Numbered from the stretch's first letter, positions 1 through 18,603 are shown. The stretch: 18,604 nucleotides of DNA from Pseudobacteriovorax sp. (GCA_050293845.1 JBNKNM010000104.1:1-18604), one strand, 5' to 3'. Notes: generated by a model not told the origin, from the sequence alone. Program-made: numbers and translations.

Positions 1-495
1 TGTCAGATTGAGCGGCATGACTCATGTAAAAACCTCGCCATACTATCCACAGTCCAATGGCAAAATTGAGCGCTGGCATCGTGAAATGAAGATTACCTAT
101 CGTTCAAAGGAAGTAGCAAGCTTTGAACAAGCTAAAAAGGTGGTTAGGGATTTTGTTGACGAATATAACCATTACCGTCTTCATAGTGCCTTGGATTACA
201 CAACGCCATACGATCGCTATTTAGGCATCGATCGCGACCTAATTGTCGAGAGGAAAAGCAAGCTCCAAGCCGCAGCTAATAAGCGAGCTGAATACTGGCG
301 AGGTAAAGATCAGAATGGCCGTCTTGAAGCGTATGACGTCTGTCTTGCAGAAGTTGCATCTGTAGTTTAGGTGGAATTGGTCGATAAGTTGCCGTCATCA
401 TGTGTTGAACAAGAAGAACGCTTGCATAGATCTCACTTCTAGGCAATATTGTCACTTCCAATCGGAGATTGTTAGGTTCCCGTCCGACCATTACA
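1..495 (+). mobile_element. Right end of an insertion sequence; candidate right terminus ...GGTTCCCGTCCGACCATTACA at 495
   Basis: The transposase 3' end is followed by about 125 bp of non-coding DNA ending in ACA (TGT on the minus strand), matching the TG...CA ends of IS3/IS481 elements. The left IR is outside the window, so the exact end is unconfirmed. Confidence 0.5.
2..370 (+). CDS. IS3/IS481-type DDE transposase, C-terminal part of integrase core (5'-truncated by window)
   Basis: The frame is open from the window start. Motifs TSPYYPQSNGKIERWH (catalytic E region), YNHYRLHSALDYTTP and the tail ERKSKLQAA are typical of rve-type IS transposases. Confidence 0.9.
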   Translation, partial: VRLSGMTHVKTSPYYPQSNGKIERWHREMKITYRSKEVASFEQAKKVVRDFVDEYNHYRLHSALDYTTPYDRYLGIDRDLIVERKSKLQAAANKRAEYWRGKDQNGRLEAYDVCLAEVASVV

Positions 496-3676: not shown

Positions 3677-4347
3677 AACTTGCCCTCCAATTGCCCATCG
3701 ATCATTCTTACTATACGGTGAGATCGTTGCGCAACATCCTGATCATGGGAAGATATAATAGCCATAATGTTTTGTTCATCGACAAGCTCCTGAAAAAGAT
3801 CCAGAACTGCTGTGGACGTTTTTGAATCCAAATTCGCAGTGGGTTCATCAGCAAATACTATTCGTGGTTTGTTCACCAGAGATCTAGCTATCGCAACCCT
3901 TTGCCTTTGTCCGCCACTAAGTTGGCTAATACGTCTTTTTTTAAACTCATTTAGACCAACACGATCCAATAGATGGGAAGCGTAATCTCGACTTGATTTG
4001 AGGTTACGACTTAAATATACCGCTGGAAGGGTAACATTCTCCATAACACTGAGTGTGGGAATCAGATGGTAAGACTGAAAAATAAAACCAAAGCATGAAA
4101 GTCTAAAGCGGCTTTTTGAATTTTCGTCTAAGTTATCAATCCGGTCTCCTTTGTAGTATATCTGTCCTGATTCGATAGGGTCGATTAGACCAAGACAGTG
4201 CAGGAGTGTGGACTTTCCTGAACCGCTTGGCCCCATTAAGGCTATCAATCCAGATTCATCGAAATGCGATGAAATTCCCTTCAATGCTTGAAAACTTTTT
4301 TCACCCAAATTATAGGATTTTTTTAGATTCTTAATCAAAAGTTCCAT
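3673..4347 (-). CDS. ABC transporter ATP-binding protein (LolD/MacB-like)
   Basis: Walker A GPSGSGKST, Q-loop GFIFQSYHL, signature LSGGQRQRVAIAR, Walker B FADEPTANLD and H-loop SHD. Confidence 0.95.
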   Translation of the reverse strand: MELLIKNLKKSYNLGEKSFQALKGISSHFDESGLIALMGPSGSGKSTLLHCLGLIDPIESGQIYYKGDRIDNLDENSKSRFRLSCFGFIFQSYHLIPTLSVMENVTLPAVYLSRNLKSSRDYASHLLDRVGLNEFKKRRISQLSGGQRQRVAIARSLVNKPRIVFADEPTANLDSKTSTAVLDLFQELVDEQNIMAIISSHDQDVAQRSHRIVRMIDGQLEGKL

Positions 4348-4350
4348 AGT

Positions 4351-4920
4351 TTACCTATATAACCGATCTTTAGATGATTTTAAGGATTTATCAACTTGAT
4401 TTAATAGTTCCTTGAGTTTTGGATCTTGACTTAGCTCAGCTGACAGTGCTTCAGCTTGCTTTAGGCTTTCTTTTCCCCTAGTATTTTCGTTGATCATTGT
4501 TTTAGGAAGAAAAGAATAAGTTTTTACGAGGTTCTTTAAGCTTAGTAAATAGGAAATTCTATCGGAGCTTCTCTTAGTTTTACTAACACTTCGTTCTAAT
4601 AGAGATTTTGACTTCTTAAAATTTTTGGCCTGTTCTTTTTCTGATTGAACAAATACATTTTGCATACTTAACATTACTCCTAGATAGCTTTGAAATAAGA
4701 CGCAACCAGAATTTTTATATGAAGTTCTCAGTTCTGAGATGTACTTATGGATTAGATCTAGGCTAGATTTTGGGCTTTTTTGTTGAAAGATATCGCTGCT
4801 ATTTTTTGCTAAATCCTGTTCCAAAATGTCCGGCTTGGGGCAAGTTTTGGAAATTCCGTAGCTTGACGCTGTCGAAAACGCAAAATAAAGAATAAAGGAA
4901 TGAATTACTCTAGAAACCAT
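4351..4920 (-). CDS. Hypothetical exported, mainly alpha-helical basic protein
   Basis: Strong RBS AAGGAGG, an N-terminal signal-like segment (MVSRVIHSFILYFAFSTASSYG) and Lys/Ser/Leu-rich amphipathic helices. No family recognised. Confidence 0.6.
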   Translation of the reverse strand: MVSRVIHSFILYFAFSTASSYGISKTCPKPDILEQDLAKNSSDIFQQKSPKSSLDLIHKYISELRTSYKNSGCVLFQSYLGVMLSMQNVFVQSEKEQAKNFKKSKSLLERSVSKTKRSSDRISYLLSLKNLVKTYSFLPKTMINENTRGKESLKQAEALSAELSQDPKLKELLNQVDKSLKSSKDRLYR

Positions 4921-4933
4921 TTAAACCTCCTTG

Positions 4934-6283
4934 CTATTTATTACTTAAATTTAATAGATTGATTTCTTTAACAACCTTCCGAAATAAAATCAAAACGGTG
5001 ATAGCAAATCCAAAATTCATACCGACCCATAATCCTCTGACTCCCATGTTAAGCATAAATGCGAAGACAAACTGGCTTAGCCCACCAAACAAACCATAGC
5101 CAATAAAGGCTTGATAAAGAGGAGCACGTGTTTGCCCGATACCTCTGAGAATCGCTGCGAGAACGATTATAAGACTTTGAAAAAGACACAAGATCCCTGC
5201 ATGGATCATAATAAAAGGAACCATATTTCGTACTTCATTAGAGTCAATAGTCCTTTGGTAAAATAAATTTACAACGTCGAAGGGATAAAGAGAAAACAGG
5301 ATTACAAGAAAAAGAGAAAAACCAAGTGTTATAACTAAAGCCGCTAGGCAGTTTTTACGAGCTCCCACAAAGTTTTCTTGGGACCAAAGTATACTCATCT
5401 TTTGAACTATAGCCTGCGACACACCAAGTGCAACCAGTAGCCCAATACTTATCCAAAGGAGGGCAATGGATTGGATTGACGTAAATTGGGGCCAAAATTT
5501 ACTAATAATTAACAGCGATAGGAGGATTGCGAAGTTTTCAATAAGAATTACGCCACTGATAGGCCAACCAAGTGCAATAATCTTTTGAAGTTGATCAAAG
5601 GAAATAGCTTGAACAATAGTTTTCGGCATTGGTAAAGCGAATTTAGTGCGAAAAGCAAAAGGTAGGGCTAAAAAAAGTACTAAAGTGTTAGCTGCAGCCA
5701 CTGCGAGTAGAATGGTCTGAGTTTTTTCTAATGAGTTCAACTGATTTAATGAGATAATGTAGTAACATAGGGCTACACCAGATAGGGAACCCATGGAGAA
5801 CAGCATGGATAATAGTCCTGCTCGTTCGTGCAGGACGAGATGAATCTTAATGGGAGTTAAGAGCAAGGTGGGAATGATAAGAACGGCTATACAAGGAGCA
5901 AGCTCCTTAGCTAAGTAGATAATTTTGGGATCAATACCTATAGCTTGCAAAATGTGACCTGAAAAGAACAGAATTCCAGATAAAACGAGCGCTAAAAATA
6001 AGGCAAGGCCAATTCCATTAGCAATACTTTTTTCATATTGCTTTTGATCTTTTCGACCAAAATCTCTCCCCCCAAAGAAGAAGAGGGCTTGCATCATCCC
6101 TGTTCCACCTAGGATAGCGGCAAAGCCCAATTTATCTAACAGACCGAACGCGCTGTAAGTATCCAAAGCTCCAATAAGTCTATGGATAATAAATCCCAGG
6201 AAAAACGGAGCAAGTTGGGCAAAGGTCAGCCACATAGATTGTATGCCTAGGGAATAAACATATTTAACGCCAGAAAGAACCAT
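4934..6283 (-). CDS. MATE family efflux transporter
   Basis: About 12 hydrophobic segments with MATE-like motifs LGWPISG, AILRGIGQT and MGVRGLWVG. The start is probably ATG 6283, preceded by AGGTG; the ORF track uses GTG 6292. Confidence 0.85.
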   Translation of the reverse strand: MVLSGVKYVYSLGIQSMWLTFAQLAPFFLGFIIHRLIGALDTYSAFGLLDKLGFAAILGGTGMMQALFFFGGRDFGRKDQKQYEKSIANGIGLALFLALVLSGILFFSGHILQAIGIDPKIIYLAKELAPCIAVLIIPTLLLTPIKIHLVLHERAGLLSMLFSMGSLSGVALCYYIISLNQLNSLEKTQTILLAVAAANTLVLFLALPFAFRTKFALPMPKTIVQAISFDQLQKIIALGWPISGVILIENFAILLSLLIISKFWPQFTSIQSIALLWISIGLLVALGVSQAIVQKMSILWSQENFVGARKNCLAALVITLGFSLFLVILFSLYPFDVVNLFYQRTIDSNEVRNMVPFIMIHAGILCLFQSLIIVLAAILRGIGQTRAPLYQAFIGYGLFGGLSQFVFAFMLNMGVRGLWVGMNFGFAITVLILFRKVVKEINLLNLSNK

Positions 6284-6292
6284 GTTTTGCAC

Positions 6293-7510
6293 CTACAAAA
6301 GAAATTCATTGACTTCTGGATGGCTTAGGAACCCACTTGGACTTGACGTTTTACCATAAGCCCCGGATTGAAAGATTATAATTTTGTCCCCAATTTCCAG
6401 TTCAGGCAGTAATATATCAGAAGCGAAGATATCCAATGGAGTACATAGTAAACCCGTGACTCGATAGGATCTTTCTGCACCTGTTTTTCCAAGAACTTTA
6501 ATGGGGAAGTTACGACGAATGACCTGCCCAAAATTGCCTGTAGCTAGTAGGTGATGATGCAGTCCTCCATTAGTAATGACAAAGTTGATTCCACCAGAGG
6601 TTTTAAGGTCTACAACATCACACACATAGATTCCTGCTTCACCTACAAGAAAGCGACCAAGTTCCAGAGCTAGTATCGTATCATCAAAATCCTTTCTTGC
6701 TTTTTCTGCAAGATCATTCATTTTAGCTTTAATCAAAGGTAGATCGATAGCCTTATCGTTTGTATAGTATGGAATACCCAGGCCACCACCCAAATTAACC
6801 TTTTTCATGGGTAGCTGATATTTTTGAGATAAGCTTCGTGCCAGCTCGTAGGACTGTTCCTGAACACTAGTTATTTGTTTAGCATCTAGATTTTGAGAAC
6901 CTGAAAAAAGATGTAATCCTTTGAAGTCAAGTTGGTAGTCTTTAATTGTTTGCACAAGTTCAGGGACTTGTTCCCAATCGATACCGAATTGCCGTGGGGA
7001 TCCTCCCATCTTGAGTCCAAATCCCTTGGTTTCGAAGGGGACGTTAATACGCAATGCGATCGGGCAAGGAAAACCTAGCTCTTCACTAATGTCTCTTAGC
7101 ATCCCTAACTCTCTCGCACTTTCGATGTTCACAGTGGCTCTAACCATGGCAGCTGCACGAAGTTCCTGTTGCGACTTTCCTGGTCCAGCCATAGATACGT
7201 GTTCGGGATTTATTCCGGTATTTAAAGCTAAATTCAACTCTTTTCCTGAAGCTAAATCGAAACCGTCGGTTATCTGTGACATGAGTTCTACTAAATGCAC
7301 ATTGGGGTTTGCTTTTATCGCAAAGTGAATCTTGATGGAGTCATCTAAGTTTTCTTTTATAGCACTCATACGATTTCGGATCAAATTTCGATAAATCACG
7401 TAAGATGGGCCATCAAATCGTTCAAGGTTTAGGTTTAGAGGAAGCCCCTTGTGTTTCATATTTATATCATTATGGTATAGCTCTAAGGCAGTTTGGAACC
7501 TACTTTTCAT
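6293..7510 (-). CDS. Fold-type III PLP-dependent decarboxylase (LysA/BtrK/VinO-like; resembles the 'exosortase A system-associated' decarboxylase family)
   Basis: PLP Lys motif HFAIKANP, plus HLFSGSQ, NLGGGLG, ELGRFLVGEAG, GGLHHHL, GLLCTPLD and GAYG. Confidence 0.9.
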   Translation of the reverse strand: MKSRFQTALELYHNDINMKHKGLPLNLNLERFDGPSYVIYRNLIRNRMSAIKENLDDSIKIHFAIKANPNVHLVELMSQITDGFDLASGKELNLALNTGINPEHVSMAGPGKSQQELRAAAMVRATVNIESARELGMLRDISEELGFPCPIALRINVPFETKGFGLKMGGSPRQFGIDWEQVPELVQTIKDYQLDFKGLHLFSGSQNLDAKQITSVQEQSYELARSLSQKYQLPMKKVNLGGGLGIPYYTNDKAIDLPLIKAKMNDLAEKARKDFDDTILALELGRFLVGEAGIYVCDVVDLKTSGGINFVITNGGLHHHLLATGNFGQVIRRNFPIKVLGKTGAERSYRVTGLLCTPLDIFASDILLPELEIGDKIIIFQSGAYGKTSSPSGFLSHPEVNEFLL

Positions 7511-9072
7511 AATTGGCTCTCCAAATTTGCTGTTTTAAGCAATGCTCTGTCAAGCTTACCATTGCTGTTTTTTGGCAATTTCTTAGATGTCAGGTACACC
7601 TCATGAGGAATCATATAAGCGGGCATCTTCTCCCGGCAATAATTTAGAATGTCTCTTTTCGTTTTGGTATCATTAGCGCCATTATTTGCATAGCAAATTA
7701 TTTCAATTCGTTGCCCTAACTTTTGATCCTCCACTCCTATAGCAACTACTTCTTGAACCAACTTCGATTTGTAAACCGACTCTTCAATTTCCTCTGGCGA
7801 GATACGATAGCCTGAGGTTTTAATCATACCGTCTAGGCGTCCGACGAAGAATAGATAACCTTCCTTGTCTCGGTACACTTGATCACCCGAAAAAACTACT
7901 TTCTCATTGAAATTTTCATACCCTTTTACAATAGAAAGATCCCTGAAACGAAAGGCCGTTTTTTGGGGGTTACGCCAGTATCCTTGGCTTACTAGCCGCC
8001 CTCTATGAACGAGTTCCCCAATCTCATAATCTTCACAAATCTCGTTCCTCGCATTAACAACTAATATTTCTTCTCCAGGAATTCCTTTACCAATAGATTC
8101 AGGCCTAAGTTCCACCTGCTCAGGGACTAAGTAGGTAGAACGGAAGGCTTCAGTTAGCCCATACATTAGGTAGGGCTTCGTAGAGGGAAAAAGCTGTCGC
8201 AAGGTAGTTAGAATTGGTACTGGAAGCTTGCCTCCCGTGTTGGCGAAATATCGCAAGCATTGCGTTGCTCTTTCGGGTATTGTAGTTGAACTGAGAGCCA
8301 TATATATTGGTGGCACTGCGGTTAAACCTGTAATCTTATACTCGATAAGTGCTGCCATCAGTTGGGGACCAGTAAGAAAATCGAATAGAATCAATTCCGC
8401 ACCTACTAGCAACGATGTCGTGATTTGAGAAAACCCTGCATCAAAGGAAAATGGAAGGGCTGCCAGAATTTTATCATCCCTATGATTATTTAGATAAGAA
8501 GCAACACATTTTGCTCCTGTTATAAGGTTTCTATGGGTTATCATCACTCCCTTTGGTTTACCAGTAGATCCTGATGTATAAAATAAGGCTGCAAGATCTG
8601 TTTCTACGATATCCGTAGGGTAGGAGTGAATCTCACCATCGACTGGATTACTTTTTTCTAAAAACAACTGTCTTCCAACTACAAGAGTCTCGCAGTTTCC
8701 AATATTATCTCTAAAATCTTGTCCTAATATCACTAATTTACTCTGTGATACAATGAGTGCAGAACTGTTGCTATCCTTAATGATTTGCAGTACCTGGTCA
8801 GATTTAAGGTTAGGATTAACAGGAATAAATACTAGACCTAGCCGGCTAGCTGCTAGAACTGACACAATAAAGTCAAAGCTCTTCGGTAATAGAATTGCAA
8901 CCCGAGACCCTTTACTATAATTTTTACTACGTAACTGTTCCATAAAATTCTTAACAGCGCGTTCTAGCTCTCCGTAGCTGAATGAGTGTTCTCGATCCCT
9001 GATAGCTACATTTTCTTTATGTGTAGCCAAGTGGTCTTCGTAAATTTGATGAAGAAGAAGTGGAGTACTCAT
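7507..9072 (-). CDS. Stand-alone adenylate-forming enzyme (AMP-binding; probably an amino acid:carrier protein ligase)
   Basis: Motifs YTSGSTGKPKG (A3), LPFSFDAG (A4-like with Asp), MYGLTEAFRST (A5), SGD (A7), GRLDGMIKTSGYRISP (A8) and LPKNSNGKLDR (A10). Confidence 0.92.
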   Translation of the reverse strand: MSTPLLLHQIYEDHLATHKENVAIRDREHSFSYGELERAVKNFMEQLRSKNYSKGSRVAILLPKSFDFIVSVLAASRLGLVFIPVNPNLKSDQVLQIIKDSNSSALIVSQSKLVILGQDFRDNIGNCETLVVGRQLFLEKSNPVDGEIHSYPTDIVETDLAALFYTSGSTGKPKGVMITHRNLITGAKCVASYLNNHRDDKILAALPFSFDAGFSQITTSLLVGAELILFDFLTGPQLMAALIEYKITGLTAVPPIYMALSSTTIPERATQCLRYFANTGGKLPVPILTTLRQLFPSTKPYLMYGLTEAFRSTYLVPEQVELRPESIGKGIPGEEILVVNARNEICEDYEIGELVHRGRLVSQGYWRNPQKTAFRFRDLSIVKGYENFNEKVVFSGDQVYRDKEGYLFFVGRLDGMIKTSGYRISPEEIEESVYKSKLVQEVVAIGVEDQKLGQRIEIICYANNGANDTKTKRDILNYCREKMPAYMIPHEVYLTSKKLPKNSNGKLDRALLKTANLESQL

Positions 9073-9998
9073 GCTTGACTGTCCTCAAAGAGTAAATTTA
9101 GAAAACTGATGATTCCCTTAGACTCTTCATAGAGCCTCTTTAATTGAAGGCCATCCACATAACCATGTCCCCCTGCAACTTGTACTGCTTCTTTGCTAAT
9201 ATTATGGGCATATTGACTTAGACTTGCTAAAAAGCTCTCCATCTTTGGATGGCGGTCTAATATCCTTAGTGATTGAAAAATTAATGCGTTCAAAGATTCG
9301 AAATCAATAATAATATTACCAATTCGTAAGCTGACTGCTTGATGATGGAAAATAGCCTTTCCTGCAGATTGCCTTACTTTGCTATAGGCAATAGCTTCAT
9401 GAACCATCCCTTGTAATATACCACTTAGTATACCAAGTAAGGTAGCTCTCATATATCTTGCAAGAATCTTCTGTCGACTTATGCATATTTCTTGTACGGC
9501 TAAAGTTTTTGACTTCACCAAACATAATTCTCCCAAACCCAAAATCTTTATTTGGGAATGTTTGTTAAGATATAGAGATTCGATTCGTGCGAGTTGGCCA
9601 TTTTGGTAAAACCTTATTCCGCTAGCTGTTGATTCTATAGGCTTACTAATACATAACATTCCTTTAGAAGTTAGAAATGATAGTTCATTGTGATTGGTAG
9701 AGCCTTTAAAAAAATAATCTAATACCAAACTGCTTAAAGTTTCGATAGCTAGCTTGAGGTCCTGTTGAGCAAGAATCATAGCCAGATTTAGCAAAGTTTC
9801 GGTATAGTCTTGCGGCCCTTGTTCAACTTCAATCATATTTAAACAAGAAGGAATATCAAGTTCACGGATTTCTTCTTTTATAGATCGATAGACGCGATCA
9901 TTACGATATCCTTCTACCCAAATAGATTGATTTTTACTTAGACAATCACTAAGATGATTCAGAATGAAGCAATGTTCATTTGCCGTCGGATGTAACAT
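9069..9998 (-). CDS. Acyl-CoA dehydrogenase-like subunit, degenerate (only the C-terminal helical domain is recognisable)
   Basis: YSKVRQSAGKAIFHHQAV and AVQVAGGHGYV are present. TEPxxGSD, KxFxTN and the IxEGT catalytic motif are absent. RBS GAGGTG. Confidence 0.75.
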   Translation of the reverse strand: MLHPTANEHCFILNHLSDCLSKNQSIWVEGYRNDRVYRSIKEEIRELDIPSCLNMIEVEQGPQDYTETLLNLAMILAQQDLKLAIETLSSLVLDYFFKGSTNHNELSFLTSKGMLCISKPIESTASGIRFYQNGQLARIESLYLNKHSQIKILGLGELCLVKSKTLAVQEICISRQKILARYMRATLLGILSGILQGMVHEAIAYSKVRQSAGKAIFHHQAVSLRIGNIIIDFESLNALIFQSLRILDRHPKMESFLASLSQYAHNISKEAVQVAGGHGYVDGLQLKRLYEESKGIISFLNLLFEDSQA

Positions 9999-10017
9999 TT
10001 ATTTCTCACCTCAATAA

Positions 10018-11199
10018 TCAAGGACGATACAATTGTGCAACCATTATTCTTTGCATATCACCTGTTCCTTCTAATATATCAAAAGCCTTAGCATCTCTGT
10101 AAAACCTCTCCCAAAAACTTCCAGACTGGCATGCTTCCTCATTAAAGCTATCATACAATCCATGAGCAATTTCCATTGCTAAACTTGAACTTGAGGCTTT
10201 TGCTATTGAAGCCTCTAAAGAACAACTTTTACCTTCATCATATTTATAAGCTGCTTTATAAGTTAGCAATCTTGAGGCATCTAAACGATATTTCCAATGA
10301 GTAATTTTATCTTGAAGAAGTACATCACGATGAAAGGAATGACTTTTCTGCTTCATAGTTTTTTCCGCCTGATCAAGAGCTTCTAAGCAGCAACCATTAA
10401 TCACTCCCGCTAGACAAGGACGCATATAATCCCAGGCTCGTTGAGCTCCAGTAAATGCGTCTACTAGCGGACCGCGTTTTCCAGTATGACCGAGCATTTC
10501 TCTTGCACTAAGCTTCACATTATTAAACGAGAAATTGGTAAGCTGACTAGGTCTGAGCCCCATCATGTTTTCAACCCGATCTATATTAACACCTTTTTGA
10601 GATGTATCGACAACAAAGGCTCTAATACCAAAACGTCCTTTTTCAGGTGCAACCGTTGCAAATACCACAAGCTTAAGTGCTCTAGAACCATTTGTAACAA
10701 AACATTTTTCTCCATTTAGAAAGTAGTCTTCGCCATCTTTTTTTATTCGGCACTGAATGGCTGTAGCATCAGAGCCGCAAGAAGGTTCAGTAATCGCAAA
10801 TGCTCCCCATACAGGTTGACTATCATTAAAGAAATTTTCTACATATATTTTTTGTTGTTCTACAGTCCCAAGTGAAAATACAGGGGGCATGGACAACCCC
10901 GGACCAGGCAGAGATATAGCAATACCTGGTCCGATACGTCCCATTTCCTCAAACAGTAGAACCCTATGATAGGCTTTGGCAGCAATTTCCAATCCCCCGA
11001 GATTTTTGGGAATATTCATTCGATTTAAAAATTCGAGATTTAGCTTTTTCCAAAGAGTCGAGCATAATTCTCCAGATATATCTGATGGTTCGACATACAT
11101 AGGAAGATGGTGAAGAACCTGTTCAAAGGAAGTTCCTTCTTCTGGAAATAATCTTTTCAATCTATTAAGATCTTTTTGAAAGGTCCCATTAATGATCAT
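10018..11199 (-). CDS. Acyl-CoA/acyl-ACP dehydrogenase family flavoprotein (catalytic subunit)
   Basis: Motifs FAITEPSCGSD, LNGEKCFVTNG, MGLR and ERFYRDAKAFDILEGTGDMQR (catalytic Glu position). Start moved to ATG 11199, 1 nt after the upstream stop. Confidence 0.9.
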   Translation of the reverse strand: MIINGTFQKDLNRLKRLFPEEGTSFEQVLHHLPMYVEPSDISGELCSTLWKKLNLEFLNRMNIPKNLGGLEIAAKAYHRVLLFEEMGRIGPGIAISLPGPGLSMPPVFSLGTVEQQKIYVENFFNDSQPVWGAFAITEPSCGSDATAIQCRIKKDGEDYFLNGEKCFVTNGSRALKLVVFATVAPEKGRFGIRAFVVDTSQKGVNIDRVENMMGLRPSQLTNFSFNNVKLSAREMLGHTGKRGPLVDAFTGAQRAWDYMRPCLAGVINGCCLEALDQAEKTMKQKSHSFHRDVLLQDKITHWKYRLDASRLLTYKAAYKYDEGKSCSLEASIAKASSSSLAMEIAHGLYDSFNEEACQSGSFWERFYRDAKAFDILEGTGDMQRIMVAQLYRP

Positions 11200-11200
11200 A

Positions 11201-11482
11201 TTAGATCCCCATTTTCTCTTTATAAGCACCAATTAAGCTACTAACTGCAATACCTTCAATTGTCATACCTTCGTACTTACAATCTGAAATCGCTACTCCA
11301 GACAGGTCGACCTCACTAAAGACCGTATCTTTGAATGAACACTCTCGAAATTGACTGTTTTGAAAACTTGAGTCGATGAACTTCACTTCACCCAACAGAC
11401 AGTCAGTGAAACTGCTAAATCTGAGCTTTGAGTCCTGAGCTATAATCTTATAATCTTTGTCTTCTAATTGAATAACAGACAT
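11201..11482 (-). CDS. Short pentapeptide-repeat protein (93 aa)
   Basis: Twelve consecutive pentapeptides: SKLRF SSFTD CLLGE VKFID SSFQN SQFRE CSFKD TVFSE VDLSG VAISD CKYEG MTIEG. Start moved to ATG 11482, whose AAGGAG RBS overlaps the upstream TAA. Confidence 0.85.
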   Translation of the reverse strand: MSVIQLEDKDYKIIAQDSKLRFSSFTDCLLGEVKFIDSSFQNSQFRECSFKDTVFSEVDLSGVAISDCKYEGMTIEGIAVSSLIGAYKEKMGI

Positions 11483-11492
11483 AAATTTCTCC

Positions 11493-12509
11493 TTATAGTT
11501 TTGGAAAAAAAAGAGCACCCGCGAAATTACCGTTTAAGCTAACGCTACAAAATAATAATCCGTATCCTCTCCATCGATTTGGATTAGTTTTTAATTGTTC
11601 TAGGACTTCATGTACCATGACAGGAACATCCATACTAGCAAAGAAACCTAATTGGGTTGGACCAATAGCTCCTATCTCTAAACCTAAATCCCAAGCCACA
11701 TGGTGTGACATAACTGTGGAAGGGCTCGAGATAAAGAGTACTGTTTTAGACAGATTTTCGATATTCATTGAGGTGAGGCAATTCCCGATGGCTGACTGGA
11801 AAAAAGCTCTGGTCGCGGTCTGATTCCACTCAATATTACCATTCTCTAAAAATATAAAAGGCTCATAACTTTCATGGTAAAGACCCTTGAGTTCTAACAG
11901 AACGTTTTTTGATCCATGGTTAATCTTAAGAGCACAAGCGCCATCTGATAGTGGATCTAATCCTGCTATAGATCTAGGGTACGGTATTGGCCATTTTTCA
12001 GCAGAACAGAAGACAGAAAAGCCTTCGTTCTCACGAGTACCTTGCATAGTTTGATTTAATATTTTTAGACTTTGAAAAAAGCTAATATTTCCCGTTTGTG
12101 AAACAGCAAAATGAGGAATATTAGACCAATTTAATTCAGCGGCCAAACGTGCTACATTTGAAGTATAAATAGCTTCTTCAATTGAACAATGGCTATAGAT
12201 GAATATGTTTGCCAGTTCATCATTCGAGCAAAGATTCTTTAGACATTCTAAGGCTATTTCGAATTGACTTTGGTTTGGAGCATAACTAAAGGTTCCTCGA
12301 GTCAAGGCATTCGTTGGAGAATTAAGAACAGACTCAATATCCAAAATAGGCATGTGTGAAAGCACCATGGCTACCACTTTCGTGTAGTGATCAGGCTTAT
12401 CTGAGTTAAGATAATCAAGACAAGTCCGATTCCACTTTGCGATATTGCCAATAGTTTTCGGAATGACTAAAGCCGAATCTTCAATTCCTATGACAAACTT
12501 TTGATTCAC
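11493..12509 (-). CDS. FabH/KAS III-fold protein lacking the catalytic Cys (KS4)
   Basis: It aligns by eye with KS1/KS2: IFIYSH, HFAVSQTGNIS (Cys->Asn), SAEKW, LSDGACAL. GTG start in a GTGA overlap with the ACP stop. Confidence 0.7.
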   Translation of the reverse strand: MNQKFVIGIEDSALVIPKTIGNIAKWNRTCLDYLNSDKPDHYTKVVAMVLSHMPILDIESVLNSPTNALTRGTFSYAPNQSQFEIALECLKNLCSNDELANIFIYSHCSIEEAIYTSNVARLAAELNWSNIPHFAVSQTGNISFFQSLKILNQTMQGTRENEGFSVFCSAEKWPIPYPRSIAGLDPLSDGACALKINHGSKNVLLELKGLYHESYEPFIFLENGNIEWNQTATRAFFQSAIGNCLTSMNIENLSKTVLFISSPSTVMSHHVAWDLGLEIGAIGPTQLGFFASMDVPVMVHEVLEQLKTNPNRWRGYGLLFCSVSLNGNFAGALFFPKL

Positions 12510-12769
12510 AATATCTTTCCTTTGACAAATTTTTTCAATGTTCCAAAATTAGTGAATAGATCCGCTGAAACATCTTCAATTTCAATTGTAAATTGAAACA
12601 CTTCTTCAATTTGCGTTAAAACTTCTACGACATTGATCGATACTAAACCAATTTCAAACAGATTAGTCTCATCATTTATGCTAATTGTGTCATCTACACC
12701 CAATACTTTGTACAAGATTTGCTTTATTTTCACACTAACGTTATCTTGAATCACTGCGTTTGTTAACAT
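12506..12769 (-). CDS. Acyl/peptidyl carrier protein
   Basis: Acidic 87-aa protein with DETNLFEIGLVSINVVEVLTQIEEVFQFTI (the Ser of GLVS is the phosphopantetheine site). Strong RBS AGGAGGT. Confidence 0.88.
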   Translation of the reverse strand: MLTNAVIQDNVSVKIKQILYKVLGVDDTISINDETNLFEIGLVSINVVEVLTQIEEVFQFTIEIEDVSADLFTNFGTLKKFVKGKIL

Positions 12770-12779
12770 TAATTACCTC

Positions 12780-14015
12780 CTAAAACGAATCTACTTTTAA
12801 TTCATTCTTAAAACTATTATGGATGTTCATAATTCGATTAAACGTCTCTTTGTAGGTGCTTCCTGATACAATAAAGAATGCTGAGAAATCTGTGCAATGA
12901 GATGCTGGAAGTGCAGTTTCTCCAACAGAAATTGAAATTTCATGACGATGTATCCATTCATGATTTAAGCTCTTTGGATCTGGTAAAGATTTAACAGTAC
13001 CGAAGAGGTTATTGCGAATACCAATCAGACCACAAGATTTTTTGTCTTGACTACTAGCAACATTATCTTGGGACCAAGGTCGATCCAATTCAATCGTTAA
13101 TAGTTCTCGGTTCAAATTAACTCCCGTTGATTCTTCTATCATGGCTACTATACCGCCTCCACCTGATCGCGCAGCAACTTCGCAAAAAATGACTTCGTCT
13201 GCTGAATTTAGGAAAACCTCAAGGTGAATCACGCCTTTATTCAATGAAAGCTTTTGAATAACTTCATCAGCAACCGACTCTAACTTATCAATGATCTTTG
13301 AATCGGTTTCTATGACTGATACAAAGGGACTTCCTTCGTTAAAATCGATGTTACCCATTTCAGGAATGTAAGGTGCCAAGGAATGAAACACAGATTCACC
13401 TCCTTGAACTAGGGAATTAATATGGTACAAAACCCCAGAGACATACTCTTCGAGTTGAAATTCTTCTTGACACTCTTCTTTTGCAAACCATTTATCAATT
13501 TGATTTTCGGTAAATAATATAGCTACCCCTTTTGATCCTTGACTACTACGAGGTTTAACGACTATCTTCCCATATCTTTTGAGGAAGTCCTTAGCATCTG
13601 CGATATTAAATTTTTCTTTAAATCTGGGAATACGAAAAGTTTTTGTATTCTGAAGGCAATGCTTCATGTAAACCTTATCGCGAAATTTTCTTGCAGTGTC
13701 CTGATTTGTACCAGGAATACCTAAAGATTCTCTAATATTTGAGGCTAGCTCAACATCCTCTTCAGAAAATGCAGCGACGGCTGTAATAGGCAATTCCCTA
13801 TGAATCTTTAGTGCTAAATTCAGAATTTCGGAATGTCGACGCATGCGGACAACATGAATTTTTTCATTTTGATCTAGATCTTTAAAATTATCTTTATTCT
13901 TTTCGTCGGTAAATACAGTAACAGCAGCCTTCAAATCGGAGAACACAGCTTTACCATTAGAAAGATAATAATTACGTTTTTCTCCTCTAACGAGGATCAG
14001 AATGTGATCTGACAT
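12780..14015 (-). CDS. ATP-grasp ligase (amino-acid ligase type)
   Basis: Motifs FRDKVYMK, VVKPRSSQGSKGV, LEEYVSG, HLEVF and FCEVAARSGGG. Confidence 0.9.
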   Translation of the reverse strand: MSDHILILVRGEKRNYYLSNGKAVFSDLKAAVTVFTDEKNKDNFKDLDQNEKIHVVRMRRHSEILNLALKIHRELPITAVAAFSEEDVELASNIRESLGIPGTNQDTARKFRDKVYMKHCLQNTKTFRIPRFKEKFNIADAKDFLKRYGKIVVKPRSSQGSKGVAILFTENQIDKWFAKEECQEEFQLEEYVSGVLYHINSLVQGGESVFHSLAPYIPEMGNIDFNEGSPFVSVIETDSKIIDKLESVADEVIQKLSLNKGVIHLEVFLNSADEVIFCEVAARSGGGGIVAMIEESTGVNLNRELLTIELDRPWSQDNVASSQDKKSCGLIGIRNNLFGTVKSLPDPKSLNHEWIHRHEISISVGETALPASHCTDFSAFFIVSGSTYKETFNRIMNIHNSFKNELKVDSF

Positions 14016-14018
14016 GAT

Positions 14019-14924
14019 TTATGTCCTTTTCTTATAGTTAACGATGATGGCATATCCATGGCCAGATAAGCTCAAAGTCCAAATAAGAGCTTGCCCACCT
14101 TTTTTAAGATATTTTGAGCCTTCCTCGATGGAAGCAATCAATGCAGCGGTTCCTTCATGAAAATTTCGGGGAGGTGCAATCTTTATAGATGATATTTCTT
14201 TATATGCAAGCTTAAGTAATTTAGATCCGTAAGGATCGCCAATTATTAAATCAGGTACAACATCCATTTTTATTAATTGTGTACCTAACCATCTGCCAAA
14301 TGTATGGAATAATGAAGACATATCATTGTTGTCACCATAACGATCATCAAAGGTGTATATATCTTTAATATTAATGAAACTTTCAGAGTGTCGTTCCATT
14401 GATCCTGCAAAAAGAAATCCACAAAAATCTCGAAATGGTGTTTCGTCACTCATTTCTATATCGAAAGGGGATAGCCATTGATCAGCACAGCTTAACAAAT
14501 ATGGACTCTGATTCTGGTTGGTTAGTCCTAATAGCGATAAACATGCCCCAATACCCGCGGTCCCAACTTGATCTATAGCGATACTATCCTCTTTAAGGTT
14601 AAGTTGATTATGGACCCTTAGGCATCTTGAGCTTAAAAAGCTGTCATTAATGGTGCATTGACTATGTATATGCGCTAATTTATCTGAAAGATTGAATTGA
14701 CTTTTAAATCTATCGAGCAAAATCTCCAGTTCTGAACCGATATCATGGTTCTTCGATCCTTTTAATTGTTCAACCTCCAATGGTTGAGATAATTTTTGGG
14801 GCAGGGAATGGGTACCTGCAGCTTCTAGCAGATAAGGGTATCTTAAGGAAAAGTTACCATCATGACACTCCTGTGGTCTTCGAATTTGTAGATCAATTAT
14901 ATCTATATTTAGCTCAATTCTCAT
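14019..14924 (-). CDS. Divergent FabH/KAS III-fold protein lacking the catalytic Cys (KS3)
   Basis: SIAIDQVGTAG aligns to the SQxxC motif of KS1/KS2 (Cys->Thr). LSCADQW and the C-terminal LIWTLSLSG resemble KS4. Start moved to ATG 14924, preceded by GAGGA. Confidence 0.6.
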   Translation of the reverse strand: MRIELNIDIIDLQIRRPQECHDGNFSLRYPYLLEAAGTHSLPQKLSQPLEVEQLKGSKNHDIGSELEILLDRFKSQFNLSDKLAHIHSQCTINDSFLSSRCLRVHNQLNLKEDSIAIDQVGTAGIGACLSLLGLTNQNQSPYLLSCADQWLSPFDIEMSDETPFRDFCGFLFAGSMERHSESFINIKDIYTFDDRYGDNNDMSSLFHTFGRWLGTQLIKMDVVPDLIIGDPYGSKLLKLAYKEISSIKIAPPRNFHEGTAALIASIEEGSKYLKKGGQALIWTLSLSGHGYAIIVNYKKRT

Positions 14925-15891
14925 TGATATCTTCCTCAATCACTTCTTTTGGATACGAAAGAAGGCAGCCTTGAATTCCTAAATTAGATTGTCCAAAGGA
15001 CAATATTGGTTTACCTTGGGCAAGTTGAGTAAATCCTTGATCGACAAGGTTAATTATGAAGTCATTTGAGCAAGCGTGTCCTCGTCTCCGAATATTGTCG
15101 CTAAATAAATTTTCTGGCGTAAATGAAAGAGACTTTACAATCAATTTCCAAAGCGAAAGGTCCGCATTAATAGGTAAAATTTGCGGGATAGTCTCTGGCT
15201 CAAGACTGCTTTGTTCGAGACACTTCTTGATGAGATCACGACTATGTCGCCAACATGTCTGAGCAATTATTTGTGAATTACCTGGTATTTCAGGCCCTCC
15301 GTGAAGTCGGCTGAAATAGTAAAACAGAGGCATATCTAGCCAACATTTTAAAGAATCACGACCAAGGAGTAGAGCTGCCGCACCATCGCTTTGAATACCT
15401 CCATCCTGGCGAAGTCTATGGTCAGCATCTCCAAACACCCGGTCAGAAGTAAGTATAAGCGCATAGGGCTGGGAACTCGTTTTTTGGAGATAGTTCATCG
15501 ATAGTTCCACAGCTTTAAACACCGAAGCACATGCCAACTGACTTACTGAAAAATCGATCTTTGGTTTGAATTCAAACCGATTTTTAATTTTTGTGAGAAG
15601 GGACTCAGGTGGGGCAGGTATACTGAAACCTTGTGTTCGTGCATGAACTATAATACCAATATCTTCGACTTGGATAAATGCTGGAAGTTTTTTCCAAAGT
15701 CGTAAAATAGATTCGCTAACAAGTTCAAAATCAGACAAATTTGAGTTTTCATAAAAGTAGCGACAACCATTTTTTAATAACGCATCGATCCTATCTTTGG
15801 GAACTTTTTTCTCTATTCCCCACTGAGTCACATCTCGTGCTTCTCCTGGCAAATAGTACGCAGCATCGATTATTCCTAAATTTGTACGCAT
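14914..15891 (-). CDS. FabH/KAS III-like enzyme with catalytic Cys (KS2)
   Basis: Motifs GIIDAAYYLPG, FSVSQLACAS (Cys121), LILTSD, QSDGAAALLL and RGHACSND. Confidence 0.85.
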   Translation of the reverse strand: MRTNLGIIDAAYYLPGEARDVTQWGIEKKVPKDRIDALLKNGCRYFYENSNLSDFELVSESILRLWKKLPAFIQVEDIGIIVHARTQGFSIPAPPESLLTKIKNRFEFKPKIDFSVSQLACASVFKAVELSMNYLQKTSSQPYALILTSDRVFGDADHRLRQDGGIQSDGAAALLLGRDSLKCWLDMPLFYYFSRLHGGPEIPGNSQIIAQTCWRHSRDLIKKCLEQSSLEPETIPQILPINADLSLWKLIVKSLSFTPENLFSDNIRRRGHACSNDFIINLVDQGFTQLAQGKPILSFGQSNLGIQGCLLSYPKEVIEEDINEN

Positions 15892-15906
15892 ACTAAAGTA
15901 TTCCTT

Positions 15907-16479
15907 CTATTTCTTCTTTGCAAAAGTTTTACCATTTAGACTTTGAATATTAGGGTAAATGGCGGCAAATTCTTGCTTTGTCACATCATATAGAATTCGA
16001 TCACATCTTTTATTTTCTAGAACATGAGCACTACGCAAGCGTCCTGTAGAGCGAAATCCACATTTATCATGAACTCTATGAGAGAGTATATTTGGTTCAG
16101 CAACCCAGGTGCTTATAACTTCTCTATCGAAATCGAGAAATCCCGTAGCAATGGTCCTTAAAAAGGCAGACACGGTGAGATTACGTCCTCCTCCTTTTTC
16201 ACCACGCAAGCCCCAGACCTCACCTAGTCCCATTTCATGGGTATACCCATTAAGACTCATTAAACCTACTAGACGGCTTTTTTCAGGTCCGTAAAGGAAT
16301 ACCTTATTGTTTGGATTACAGAAAAGAATATGTAGTTCTAGGTCAGTGAGGTTTTGTTTTCCTAGTCCCATATCTAACCACTTCACTATACTTTCACGTC
16401 TAAACCATTCACAAACTTTCTTAGTATGAGTGTTGCTATATGGAATAAGTACAGCTTCATTAAGATTTTCAATTGTCAT
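15907..16479 (-). CDS. GNAT family N-acyltransferase (RimJ/RimL-like)
   Basis: Motifs LVGLMSL, WVAEPNILSHRVHDKCGFRSTGRLR and DRILY match the RimJ/RimL-type C-terminal pattern. ATGA overlap with KS1. Confidence 0.8.
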   Translation of the reverse strand: MTIENLNEAVLIPYSNTHTKKVCEWFRRESIVKWLDMGLGKQNLTDLELHILFCNPNNKVFLYGPEKSRLVGLMSLNGYTHEMGLGEVWGLRGEKGGGRNLTVSAFLRTIATGFLDFDREVISTWVAEPNILSHRVHDKCGFRSTGRLRSAHVLENKRCDRILYDVTKQEFAAIYPNIQSLNGKTFAKKK

Positions 16480-17429
16480 TGTGCAACCCCAAGCCTATTC
16501 TCCAAGTGGGAACTAAGTATAAAGGAACCAAAACATCCCCCAATACCACTAGAAAATATAAGATGGTATCCCTCACGTTTATGGGCATTTGAATTTTTAA
16601 TATTAATAGCGACATCTGAACCTAAAACATGTCCTATTGTCCGAAGACCTTGATCATGAAGTTTAGAAACAGGAATTCCAAGAGCATTAAGTACAATAGA
16701 CCAAGAAGGTTTATGGGTATTCTGAGGGCATACTGTATCGACGTTCTCGCCTTTTATACCAACTTGCCGAAGACTTTTCCGCATTATGGAAGTGCAATTC
16801 CATAAATAATTGGGATTATCTTCGTAGCTTCCATCATCCATGATGCCTTTTAAATTTCTTTTATCATTGTATGTATTTATCCCGGATATAAGATTTCTGG
16901 ATCTCACGCTTTTGCCAATTAAGATGGCGGAAGTCCCATCACTTTGTATTCCACTATCATTTATTCGTCTCAAGTGTTCTAAGAGAATATTATCAATCGT
17001 CACAACAATGGCCACTTTCTCTGCAGATTCTGCATTCATAAGGTAATTCAAGGTATTAATGGCATGAATAGGTGAGACACAATTTTGTTGGCTAATAGAA
17101 AACCCAGCAGTGTCGTATAGACTAAATTTTTTCTTAATAGTGTCAACTATCGAAAATGGTGGGGGCAGTATGTTTGCCTGTGACGTATGACAATAGATTA
17201 GATAAGCAACATCTTTTCGATTAATATTATTTCTATTTATAACATCATGGACACATTCTAATCCTAGATCAAATATTTCCTCAGTATTCGAGCGATAGTA
17301 ACGTTCTGAAGTATTGGTTCGCAACTGCTGGACCATCTGATTGTCAATTCTATGCTCTATACAGTAGTCGTCTGTAAGACAAAGCTCTGAACCTAATCGA
17401 TATTCAATATCAATGATACCAATTCCCAT
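16476..17429 (-). CDS. FabH/KAS III-like enzyme with catalytic Cys (KS1)
   Basis: Motifs GIGIIDIEY, LIYCHT, FSISQQNCVS (Cys117), QSDGTSAILI, IGHVLGSD and SSGIGGCFG. RBS GAAGGT-N5-ATG. Confidence 0.85.
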   Translation of the reverse strand: MGIGIIDIEYRLGSELCLTDDYCIEHRIDNQMVQQLRTNTSERYYRSNTEEIFDLGLECVHDVINRNNINRKDVAYLIYCHTSQANILPPPFSIVDTIKKKFSLYDTAGFSISQQNCVSPIHAINTLNYLMNAESAEKVAIVVTIDNILLEHLRRINDSGIQSDGTSAILIGKSVRSRNLISGINTYNDKRNLKGIMDDGSYEDNPNYLWNCTSIMRKSLRQVGIKGENVDTVCPQNTHKPSWSIVLNALGIPVSKLHDQGLRTIGHVLGSDVAINIKNSNAHKREGYHLIFSSGIGGCFGSFILSSHLENRLGVAQ

Positions 17430-17527: not shown

Positions 17528-17543
17528 AGCAAAGACTGTGCCG
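17528..17543 (-). promoter_or_regulatory. Sigma54 (RpoN) -24/-12 promoter
   Basis: Minus strand CGGCACAGTCTTTGCT gives GG-N10-GC, close to the consensus TGGCAC-N5-TTGCW. It points into the operon, with a predicted +1 near 17517. Confidence 0.8.
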
Positions 17544-17925: not shown

Positions 17926-18603
17926 TTAAATATGGTATTTTTTACGTCTAGAATCGAGTGTTGATCGGCTTATATCGAGTTTTGCTAGGGCTTCCGTAAT
18001 ATTCGATGTAGATTCTATAGTCTTTTCTAGAATCATTTTATCGAGGGTAGATATCGCTTCACTATACTTTAACACTCCAGATAAAACTTTTTTAACGATC
18101 TTTTCGAAGTCTTTTGTATCCGCAGTATTAAGTCCTGGTTCTCTCATAAGATTAAAGTCAGGAAGAAACTTGGAGCTATAAGGTTCTTCAGCTAAATCAG
18201 CTTCCATGATTAATACCTTGAATGCCTGAAAGAGCATTCTAATATTTCCCTGCCAGTAGTAACCTTTGCAAGCATTAGCAAGCTCTTCAATCTGGTCTTT
18301 ACTAAGTTTCTTTCCCTTTCTTGCAAAGAAGATCTCAATAAAATCGGAAATATCTTCCTTTCTTTCTCTCAAAGGAGGCAACTTAATAAAACTCCCCATT
18401 ATACGTGAAGCTAAGTCAAGTAGAATTTTGCCTTCAGATACCGCGTCTCCGAGAGGTATTGTCATAGCTGCAATAAGATGAAAACTTGAATACTGAACAT
18501 CAGTAGAACCTACTCTTTGGTAGCTTCCATCATTTAATACTCGAAGTAGATCTTGTTGACACTCTTTTGGTAAGTAGTGGATTTCATCGAGAAACAAAAT
18601 ACC
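17926..18603 (-). CDS. Sigma54-dependent transcriptional activator (bEBP; AAA+ C-terminal half plus Fis-type HTH), 5'-truncated by window
   Basis: Walker B ILFLDEI, QQDLLRVL, YQRVG, LPPLRERKEDI, WQGNIRML and HTH NITEALAKLDISRSTL. Confidence 0.9.
   Translation of the reverse strand, partial: GILFLDEIHYLPKECQQDLLRVLNDGSYQRVGSTDVQYSSFHLIAAMTIPLGDAVSEGKILLDLASRIMGSFIKLPPLRERKEDISDFIEIFFARKGKKLSKDQIEELANACKGYYWQGNIRMLFQAFKVLIMEADLAEEPYSSKFLPDFNLMREPGLNTADTKDFEKIVKKVLSGVLKYSEAISTLDKMILEKTIESTSNITEALAKLDISRSTLDSRRKKYHI

Follow-up and report, generated by a model that had tools for sequence, protein, structure and literature searches.

Four KAS III-like paralogues and their possible pairing as heterodimers in a Pseudobacteriovorax operon

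The operon and its four KAS III-like genes

The stretch of DNA analysed here, hereafter the window, comprises 18,604 nucleotides (nt; G+C content 33-42%) from Pseudobacteriovorax sp. (GCA_050293845.1 JBNKNM010000104.1:1-18604) and holds a single minus-strand operon with four genes, KS1 to KS4, whose products resemble β-ketoacyl-ACP synthase III (KAS III, the FabH type; ACP, acyl carrier protein). An earlier note on this DNA had proposed that two of these paralogues are catalytic and two Cys-less, and that they form two distinct heterodimers, for example KS2-KS3 and KS1-KS4. The four open reading frames are real and lie where the note had placed them, all on the minus strand. KS1 (16476..17429) encodes 317 amino acids (aa), and its stop is overlapped by 4 nt by the gene of a GNAT-like acetyltransferase (15907..16479, minus strand; Pfam Acetyltransf_3, E=0.0037, below the cut-off). 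Downstream follow KS2 (14914..15891, 325 aa), KS3 (14019..14924, 301 aa), an ATP-grasp ligase (12780..14015, minus strand; Pfam ATP-grasp_4, E=5.6e-8, with weak NCBIfam likeness to DdaF, PylC and BacD-type ligases), the sole acyl or peptidyl carrier protein of the operon (ACP/PCP; 12506..12769, minus strand; Pfam PP-binding, E=9.4e-10) and KS4 (11493..12509, 338 aa), whose GTG start overlaps the ACP stop as GTGA. The KS3 reading frame can be drawn as 14019-14939, giving 306 aa from a TTG, or as 301 aa from the ATG at 14924, which lies 11 nt inside the end of KS2 and is preceded 8-14 nt upstream by the Shine-Dalgarno sequence GAGGAAG. The 301-aa form is also present in the protein database, and ATG 14924 is most likely the start.

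None of the four proteins reaches a Pfam or NCBIfam cut-off. KS1 and KS2 score 18.6 and 14.7 bits against Pfam ACP_syn_III/ACP_syn_III_C, below the gathering cut-off of 26.6, and KS3 and KS4 have no relevant match in either collection, a ribA line for KS3 being at chance level (E=0.053). Pairwise BLASTP, at levels far above chance, relates KS1 to KS2 (25% identity, E=4e-27), KS3 to KS4 (E=9e-7 over 110 aa) and KS1 to KS4 (E=4e-5 across 269 aa, an Asn being aligned to Cys117). The KS2-KS4 match is marginal (E=0.038) and those of KS2-KS3 and KS1-KS3 are not significant; KS3 is linked to the other paralogues only via KS4, profiles and its structure model. Single-sequence PDB searches with KS3 and KS4 returned nothing useful, and a word-based homologue search found one relative of KS3 besides itself and none of KS4. 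An exhaustive search of a library clustered at 50% identity recovered 43 representatives of the KS4 type at E<=1e-3.

Family profiles were built from alignments of 14 sequences for KS1 (A5), 26 for KS2 (A1) and, from the 43 library matches, 39 for KS4 (A2), and 15 KS3 orthologues were collected from related loci (A4). The KS1 and KS4 profiles match FabH (2ebd) over their full length (E=5.2e-23 and 4.2e-25), and the KS2 profile matches it with E=3.7e-15. KS4 and KS2 profiles align by hhalign with a probability of 99.3% (E=2.4e-20), and 14 and 7 of the 39 KS4 family members match PF08541 and PF08545, respectively. For KS3, a two-sequence profile (with P0002) aligns to the KS4 family with a probability of 94.6% (E=6.7e-8), and the same profile gives 0.5% against the KS2 family and nothing in the PDB. 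A protein atlas gave leads only, to clusters that in part bear the annotation ACP_syn_III (scores 0.94 and 0.96). The KS3 model that AlphaFold2 built with the 15 orthologues (predicted local distance difference test, pLDDT, 72.8; predicted template modelling score, pTM, 0.76; residues 1-38 disordered with pLDDT <50) finds FabH 4z19 as its best Foldseek match (E=1.8e-11, template modelling (TM) score ~0.62), with PqsD, AbyA1 and ChlB3 among its other matches, and that of KS4 (pLDDT 92.9, pTM 0.93) matches FabH 2x3e (E=2.6e-17, TM 0.68-0.72). Profile alignments and predicted models thus agree and confirm that all four are KAS III paralogues of the FabH-like thiolase fold; for KS3 and KS4 the earlier note had suspected this from shared motifs, and its proposal depended on it.

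A scan of species-representative genomes with the KS2 alignment, followed by gene mapping with BLASTP and hidden Markov models, yielded 15 loci (given L numbers where needed below). The nearest relatives are from Pseudobacteriovorax, and a Legionella origin, considered on account of the G+C content, was rejected. In nine of them the gene order is KS1-GNAT-KS2-KS3-ATP-grasp-ACP-KS4-(MATE)-pentapeptide-ACAD-short ACAD-AMP-ligase-decarboxylase, where MATE stands for an efflux transporter and ACAD for acyl-CoA dehydrogenase; these are from Pseudobacteriovorax, Myxococcus, Hyalangium, a gammaproteobacterial metagenome-assembled genome (MAG), Rheinheimera, Gynuella, Piscinibacter, a Burkholderiales MAG and Rubrivivax. 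L012, a tenth locus, lacks the ATP-grasp and pentapeptide genes but is otherwise arranged alike, and these ten loci with their operon of about 13 genes span Bdellovibrionota, Myxococcota and Pseudomonadota. The GNAT gene stands between KS1 and KS2 in 11 loci. Among the remaining loci, L003 (Rhodopila, 9876-12268, cut by the contig end) has two tandem KS2 copies, one KS3 and no ATP-grasp gene; L008 and L011 hold KS2-KS3-ATP-grasp-pentapeptide only, without KS1 or KS4, among FabA-like, fatty-acid-hydroxylase, ligase, ACAD and AurF-like genes; L014 (Sphingobium) is reduced to GNAT-ACP-KS4-like-KS1-like-MATE-ligase-decarboxylase-ACAD pair; and L015 (Noviherbaspirillum, 2271-10960) has five KAS III-like genes, two Cys-bearing and three Cys-less. 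One of the Cys-less L015 paralogues carries an H-x4-D motif without the Cys. Judged by the copies in L003 and L015, the KAS III family is still duplicating and diverging. We found no paper describing this type of cluster, in a search that covered subscription journals thinly.

In a quick, unrooted IQ-TREE phylogeny of 60 paralogues, from which only the L003 KS4 fragment was left out and in which the L015 rows are very long, four clades are recovered: KS1 with 12 rows (support 99), KS2 with 15 (100), KS3 with 14 (99) and KS4 with 11 (94). By this topology the four are old orthologue groups that travel together. The sister pairs window+L001, L002+L006 and L010+L012 recur in all four clades, and the cluster has therefore moved as a unit rather than along species lines. 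KS1 and KS2 fall on one side of the tree (support 92) and KS3 and KS4 on the other, with a weak support of 82% in the Shimodaira-Hasegawa-like approximate likelihood ratio test. The duplication of an ancestral active/inactive pair suggested in the earlier note fits this grouping, but a weakly supported split in an unrooted tree does not prove it. Tree lengths are 11.95 for KS3, 11.49 for KS4 and 12.45 for the short ACAD, versus 6.33 for KS2, 6.77 for KS1 and 4.99 for the full-length ACAD, so that KS3 evolves nearly twice as fast as KS2 and the short ACAD about 2.5 times as fast as its full-length counterpart. Such longer trees are the pattern expected of non-catalytic partners under relaxed constraint.

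Active-site residues

Active sites were read from alignments to three FabH chains and from the joint alignment of the 60 paralogues. The sequence motifs quoted in the earlier note are all present in the translations: the nucleophile loops SQQNC (KS1), SQLAC (KS2), DQVGT (KS3) and SQTGN (KS4), GIQSDG in both KS1 and KS2, GHxxxxD in the forms GHVLGSD and GHACSND, and the resemblances CADQW/SAEKW and TLSLSG/SVSLNG between KS3 and KS4. The canonical FabH triad Cys-His-Asn is complete in none of the four proteins. At its three positions KS1 has Cys, Gln and His, with the loop Q-Q-(N/Q)-C-V-S; most of its orthologues have His at the FabH His position, which is Gln236 in the window and a Gln likewise in L001, and Asn in L014, whereas C117, N237, H267 and D272 are invariant (14/14 in A5). 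KS2 has Cys, Ile (Ile241) and His, with the loop Q-L-A-C-A-S; its orthologues have Ile, Thr or Ala at the FabH His position, C121 is invariant among the 26 sequences of A1, and H272 and D277 are conserved in at least 90%. The Cys117 and Cys121 singled out in the earlier note are thus correctly numbered and invariant. Against all three FabH structures, His267 of KS1 and His272 of KS2 occupy the FabH Asn position, and both are followed by an Asp at +5 (Asp272 and Asp277).

KS3 has Thr (Thr122), Asp and His (His256) at the triad positions, with the family loop G-Q-L-G-T-A-G. The Thr is found in 13 of 14 orthologues and His256 in all 14, without an Asp at +5. KS4 keeps none of the three residues, having Asn (Asn143), Ser and Phe, and its family loop Q-L-Q-G-A-S reads S-Q-T-G-N in the window. 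A Cys at the aligned position occurs in 0/14 KS3 and 0/11 KS4 orthologues. The combination of a nucleophile, a His at the FabH Asn position and an Asp at +5 is therefore present in KS1 and KS2 and absent from KS3 and KS4. The division into two catalytic and two Cys-less proteins stands as far as the Cys pattern goes, but the residues of KS1 and KS2 (Cys, His at the Asn position, Asp at +5) are not those of canonical condensing enzymes. Likewise, KS3 is Cys-less in having Thr in place of Cys, yet it has not been stripped bare, with an invariant His256 and a near-invariant Thr kept.

In type II polyketide synthases, an active ketosynthase (KS) is paired with a Cys-less paralogue, the chain length factor (CLF), which shapes the pocket and has Gln at the Cys position; both belong to the KAS I/II branch. 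KS3 with Thr and KS4 with Asn or Gly at this position differ from CLF, and a relationship to KS-CLF was ruled out, all matches being of the KAS III type.

Acyl-shuttling members of the KAS III family offer another comparison. ChlB3 has the triad Cys113-His296-Asp301, and CerJ is of the same kind (PMC9573744, as far as excerpted here); the KS2 residues Cys121, Ile, His272 and Asp277 read as an enzyme of this ChlB3/CerJ type, an equivalence taken from the motif and not from direct alignment. According to the same excerpts, DpsC has a Ser nucleophile with His266 and His297, 31 residues apart (PMC9573744). KS1 has its His or Gln236 likewise 31 residues before His267 and an Asp at +5, the same 31- and 5-residue spacings, and so reads as DpsC-like, although it might still condense. 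Several observations weigh against this assignment and against the Cys-less status of the other two proteins. The best solved match of both the KS1 and KS2 profiles is FabH and not ChlB3, CerJ or DpsC, which match more weakly where scored (KS2 profile: DpsC E=2e-7, ChlB3 1.7e-4; KS1 profile: 4e-4 and 2.5e-8, in the same order). A search with the C-terminal half of KS1 returned FabH-type chains only, ChlB3 being absent at E<=0.01, and what points to the ChlB3 type is motif and spacing. Further, the nucleophile loop of the paralogues is one residue longer than that of FabH, and the register against FabH is consequently uncertain by one position; in the KS4 orthologue of L001, a Cys precedes the aligned position by one residue (SQQCN). 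The window KS3 and KS4 have a Cys at neither of the two candidate positions.

The conserved Thr122 and His256 also allow KS3 to be an enzyme in its own right, with an O-acyl transfer or decarboxylation site, in which case the operon would have three active enzymes and KS4 as a helper. The conservation of both residues among orthologues speaks for this, as does the Ser nucleophile with which DpsC works (PMC9573744, in part). Yet the His of KS3 lacks the Asp at +5, the protein evolves nearly twice as fast as KS2, a Thr nucleophile for the KAS III fold was not found in the literature examined, and Thr122 and His256 could be retained for pocket shape alone; we regard an enzymatic KS3 as quite improbable.

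Candidate heterodimers and competing arrangements

Gene order speaks for a pairing of KS2 and KS3. A KS3 orthologue directly follows KS2 in 13/13 loci with a KS2 orthologue, including the reduced clusters L008 and L011. In each of the 13 the two genes also overlap where KS2 stops and KS3 starts, by 4 nt in 10/13; in the window the overlap is 11 nt. A complex of the two proteins, each given with its alignment, was predicted in three runs with interaction scores (ipSAE, interaction prediction score from aligned errors) of 0.93, 0.92 and 0.93, the best of three controls scoring 0.00; the mark used for this score is reached by 116 of 157 solved complexes and by 2 of 215 mismatched pairs. Contacts are shared between the runs to at least 90%, with a partner pLDDT of 84-87. 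The predicted interface is that of the FabH dimer, in which the strands preceding the nucleophile loops pair together. In the model, Ser99, Cys101 and Leu102 of KS3 contact KS2 residues 118-119, beside Cys121, and of the 23 KS3 residues that are invariant or nearly so, 15 fall among the 60 of 301 residues predicted at the interface (p=9e-7). On gene order and the predicted complex, we consider that KS2 and KS3 probably work as a heterodimer.

On the other side of the balance, the active site of this fold is near the interface anyway, and the enrichment of conserved KS3 residues is thus not independent evidence. Solved structures exist of FabH homodimers and of PqsBC, and the complex score may therefore be an echo of the known fold; with KS2-KS3 as the sole pair modelled this arrangement cannot be told apart from KS2-KS2 or KS2-KS4. 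The gene counts are unequal in two loci, with two KS2 to one KS3 in L003 and two Cys-bearing to three Cys-less genes in L015. Conserved KS2 residues are not enriched at the interface (6/19, p=0.12; 13/57, p=0.25). This last point also favours another arrangement, with KS1 and KS2 as ordinary homodimers and with KS3 and KS4 standing apart in a non-catalytic role, for instance as chaperones of the carrier protein, scaffolds or gatekeepers, either as homodimers themselves or as a KS3-KS4 pair. Homodimers are the rule for FabH-like enzymes (PMC4807248, in part), the KS4 gene is coupled to the ACP gene and not to KS1, and covariation of rates in 10 genes of the cluster (11 taxa, 19 branches) showed no sign of pairing (KS2-KS3 r=-0.02, KS1-KS4 r=0.08), in a set too small to count against pairing. 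What speaks against homodimers is the N-terminus of KS3, which is disordered in the monomer model and carries a KS3-specific invariant motif, AGxxSRP, that lies within the predicted contact with KS2. We consider the homodimer arrangement unlikely. An obligatory KS3-KS4 pair was ruled out, since KS3 occurs without KS4 in L008 and L011 and a KS4-like gene without KS3 in L014.

For KS1 and KS4, the case comes mainly from the reduced cluster L014, where the ACP, KS4-like and KS1-like genes are adjacent and the latter two are the only KAS III types. The ACP-KS4 order is kept in every locus having KS4, and the two genes overlap in the window. Set against this, other genes separate KS1 from KS4 both in the window and in the 10 full-length loci. 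That they work as a heterodimer is a tentative proposal, to which we would give slightly less than an even chance. The same reduced clusters bear on a further arrangement, in which all four proteins gather about the one carrier protein as a single larger complex, or pair the other way, as KS1-KS3 and KS2-KS4. Compatible with it would be that the operon has a single ACP for its four KAS III-like proteins, that its genes are tightly packed and overlap, and that the fold, and therefore the dimer surface, is the same in all four. The paralogues nevertheless split cleanly, KS2+KS3 in L008 and L011 versus KS1-like+KS4-like in L014, and a larger complex or swapped pairs seem very improbable.

The solved and characterized relatives offer both likenesses and differences. 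The FabH-like heterodimer PqsBC imitates the homodimer of FabH; PqsB is without all three triad residues, and PqsC has a Cys129-His269 dyad without the Asn and a pocket partly lined by PqsB (PMC4807248, as excerpted). KS4 resembles PqsB in having lost the triad, and KS3 does so only in part, with its His kept. Family profiles from the window match PqsC chains at E=1e-6 to 1e-13, but FabH outscores PqsC with every profile, and the window proteins are thus not PqsB/PqsC orthologues. PqsC retains the first His, with a Val in place of the Asn, whereas KS2 shows the reverse, with Ile at the His and His at the Asn position, and the window operon would have two pairs instead of one and a dedicated carrier protein. 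In LstAB and NltAB of lipstatin and nocardiolactone biosynthesis, the triad-less subunit is described as always co-clustering and as needed for solubility and activity (PMC12141560; bioRxiv 10.1101/856955; PMC9486936; each in part), and LstB and NltB contribute a Glu to the active site of the partner across the interface (PMC12141560; bioRxiv 10.1101/856955). An active KAS III subunit with a diverged partner is what we propose for the KS pairs as well, with the difference that no Glu occurs among the invariant or near-invariant columns of KS3 (A4) or KS4 (A2). ChlB3, described as a dimer of identical chains (PMC9573744, in part), differs in having no Cys-less partner. If the pairs are as proposed, they would be new relative to the PqsBC and LstAB kind in that there are two of them in one operon, with a His/Asp and not a His/Asn site, no helper Glu, and a Thr/His remnant in KS3.

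Taken together, two enzyme/helper heterodimers, KS2-KS3 and KS1-KS4, are the best-supported explanation, with a probability of about 0.5. The pairing put forward in the earlier note thus gains from the gene overlap, the constant co-occurrence and the complex score of KS2-KS3 and from the L014 cluster for KS1-KS4, although for both pairs we infer it. The two would be pseudo-symmetric heterodimers of the FabH-dimer type with one Cys active site each, the Cys-less subunit contributing the dimer interface as well as a portion of the substrate pocket; KS4 might in addition provide a docking surface for the carrier protein. In KS2, the Cys would receive an acyl group from the carrier protein, to be handed on to an O or N nucleophile, and the two pairs would form two different bonds on intermediates of one exported small-molecule product. 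Around the single carrier protein the operon assembles an AMP-forming ligase, a decarboxylase dependent on pyridoxal phosphate (PLP), the ACAD pair, the ATP-grasp ligase, the GNAT-like protein and exporters.

Heterodimers of an active FabH-like enzyme with a degenerate paralogue are known from few pathways (PqsBC, LstAB, NltAB), and in these the 'dead' subunit mattered for solubility, pocket shape or catalysis. The operon would hold two such pairs with non-canonical sites, and its Cys-less families escape Pfam and NCBIfam. Its hosts are predatory bacteria, myxobacteria and many proteobacteria; exporters and a pentapeptide-repeat protein are among its products, and it offers a defined target for a new natural product and for the evolution of pseudo-enzyme partners after duplication.

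Remaining genes of the operon and its flanks

Downstream of KS4, all on the minus strand, lie a short pentapeptide-repeat protein (11201..11518; Pfam Pentapeptide_4, E=5.5e-10), a full-length ACAD-family protein (10018..11232) with all three ACAD domains found by Pfam, and a short ACAD-like protein (9069..9998) in which the C-terminal ACAD domain alone is recognisable. Pentapeptide and ATP-grasp genes are both present in the window, the nine full loci, L008 and L011 and both absent from L012 and L014, which points to a link in function and not to an immunity gene on its own. The likeness of the full-length ACAD to the AcrC, PigA and RedW types is far under the NCBIfam cut-offs of those families, and a BLASTP match between the two ACAD proteins is not significant. 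The pair is kept in 11 loci and in L014, and it is plausible that the two form a heteromeric dehydrogenase. The earlier note had counted this pair as a third active/inactive heteromer; the single recognisable domain and the roughly 2.5-fold faster evolution of the short protein agree with this, but the heteromer itself is no more than plausible. A more far-reaching picture, which we hold to be rather doubtful, is that of a horizontally mobile pathway running on three enzyme/pseudo-enzyme heteromers (KS2-KS3, KS1-KS4 and the ACAD pair) around one carrier protein. With the KAS III pairs, the acyl-shuttling (Cys-His-Asp) branch would then have its first heterodimers, and KS3 would be no dead subunit, its invariant residues (AGxxSRP, His87, Ser99, Thr122 and His256) forming a composite active site with KS2 across their interface.

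The minus-strand genes further downstream encode an AMP-forming ligase (7507..9072; TIGR03098, 595.3 bits versus a cut-off of 592.35), a PLP-dependent decarboxylase of the diaminopimelate-decarboxylase fold (6293..7510; TIGR03099, 463.4 bits, slightly below the cut-off of 478.45; Pfam Orn_Arg_deC_N, E=6e-39) and a MATE efflux transporter (4934..6292), which sits within the cluster in other genomes. TIGR03098, matched by the ligase, is an 'exosortase A system-associated' family. No exosortase gene lies within the window, and the ligase/decarboxylase pair evidently serves another context too.

Also on the minus strand, a LolD-like ATP-binding cassette (ABC) ATPase (3673-4347) adjoins a gene that joins an FtsX/MacB permease to a LolA-like domain (1694-3676); homologues of the ATPase and permease flank the cluster in L002, L006, L008, L010, L011 and L014. 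In L008 and L015, the related clusters are flanked by LolA-like genes that stand alone. The LolA-fused permease, the LolD-like ATPase and these flanking genes hint at a lipid-like product destined for the outer membrane.

About 100 nt upstream of KS1, a sigma-54 -24/-12-like site, cGGCAC-N5-TTGC (17529..17543, minus strand), is the only match within the window at one mismatch. It lies just downstream of the gene for a sigma-54-dependent activator, of which the 3' part is present, cut by the window end (17926..18603, minus strand; Pfam Sigma54_activat, E=3.6e-14, and HTH_8), and the operon may therefore be sigma-54-controlled. Two proteins of 386 aa (533-1693) and 189 aa (4351-4920) have no Pfam or NCBIfam family match. 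At the opposite edge of the window, a transposase/integrase core fragment (rve_3, E=8e-16; 2-370, plus strand) fits a mobile or recently acquired region.

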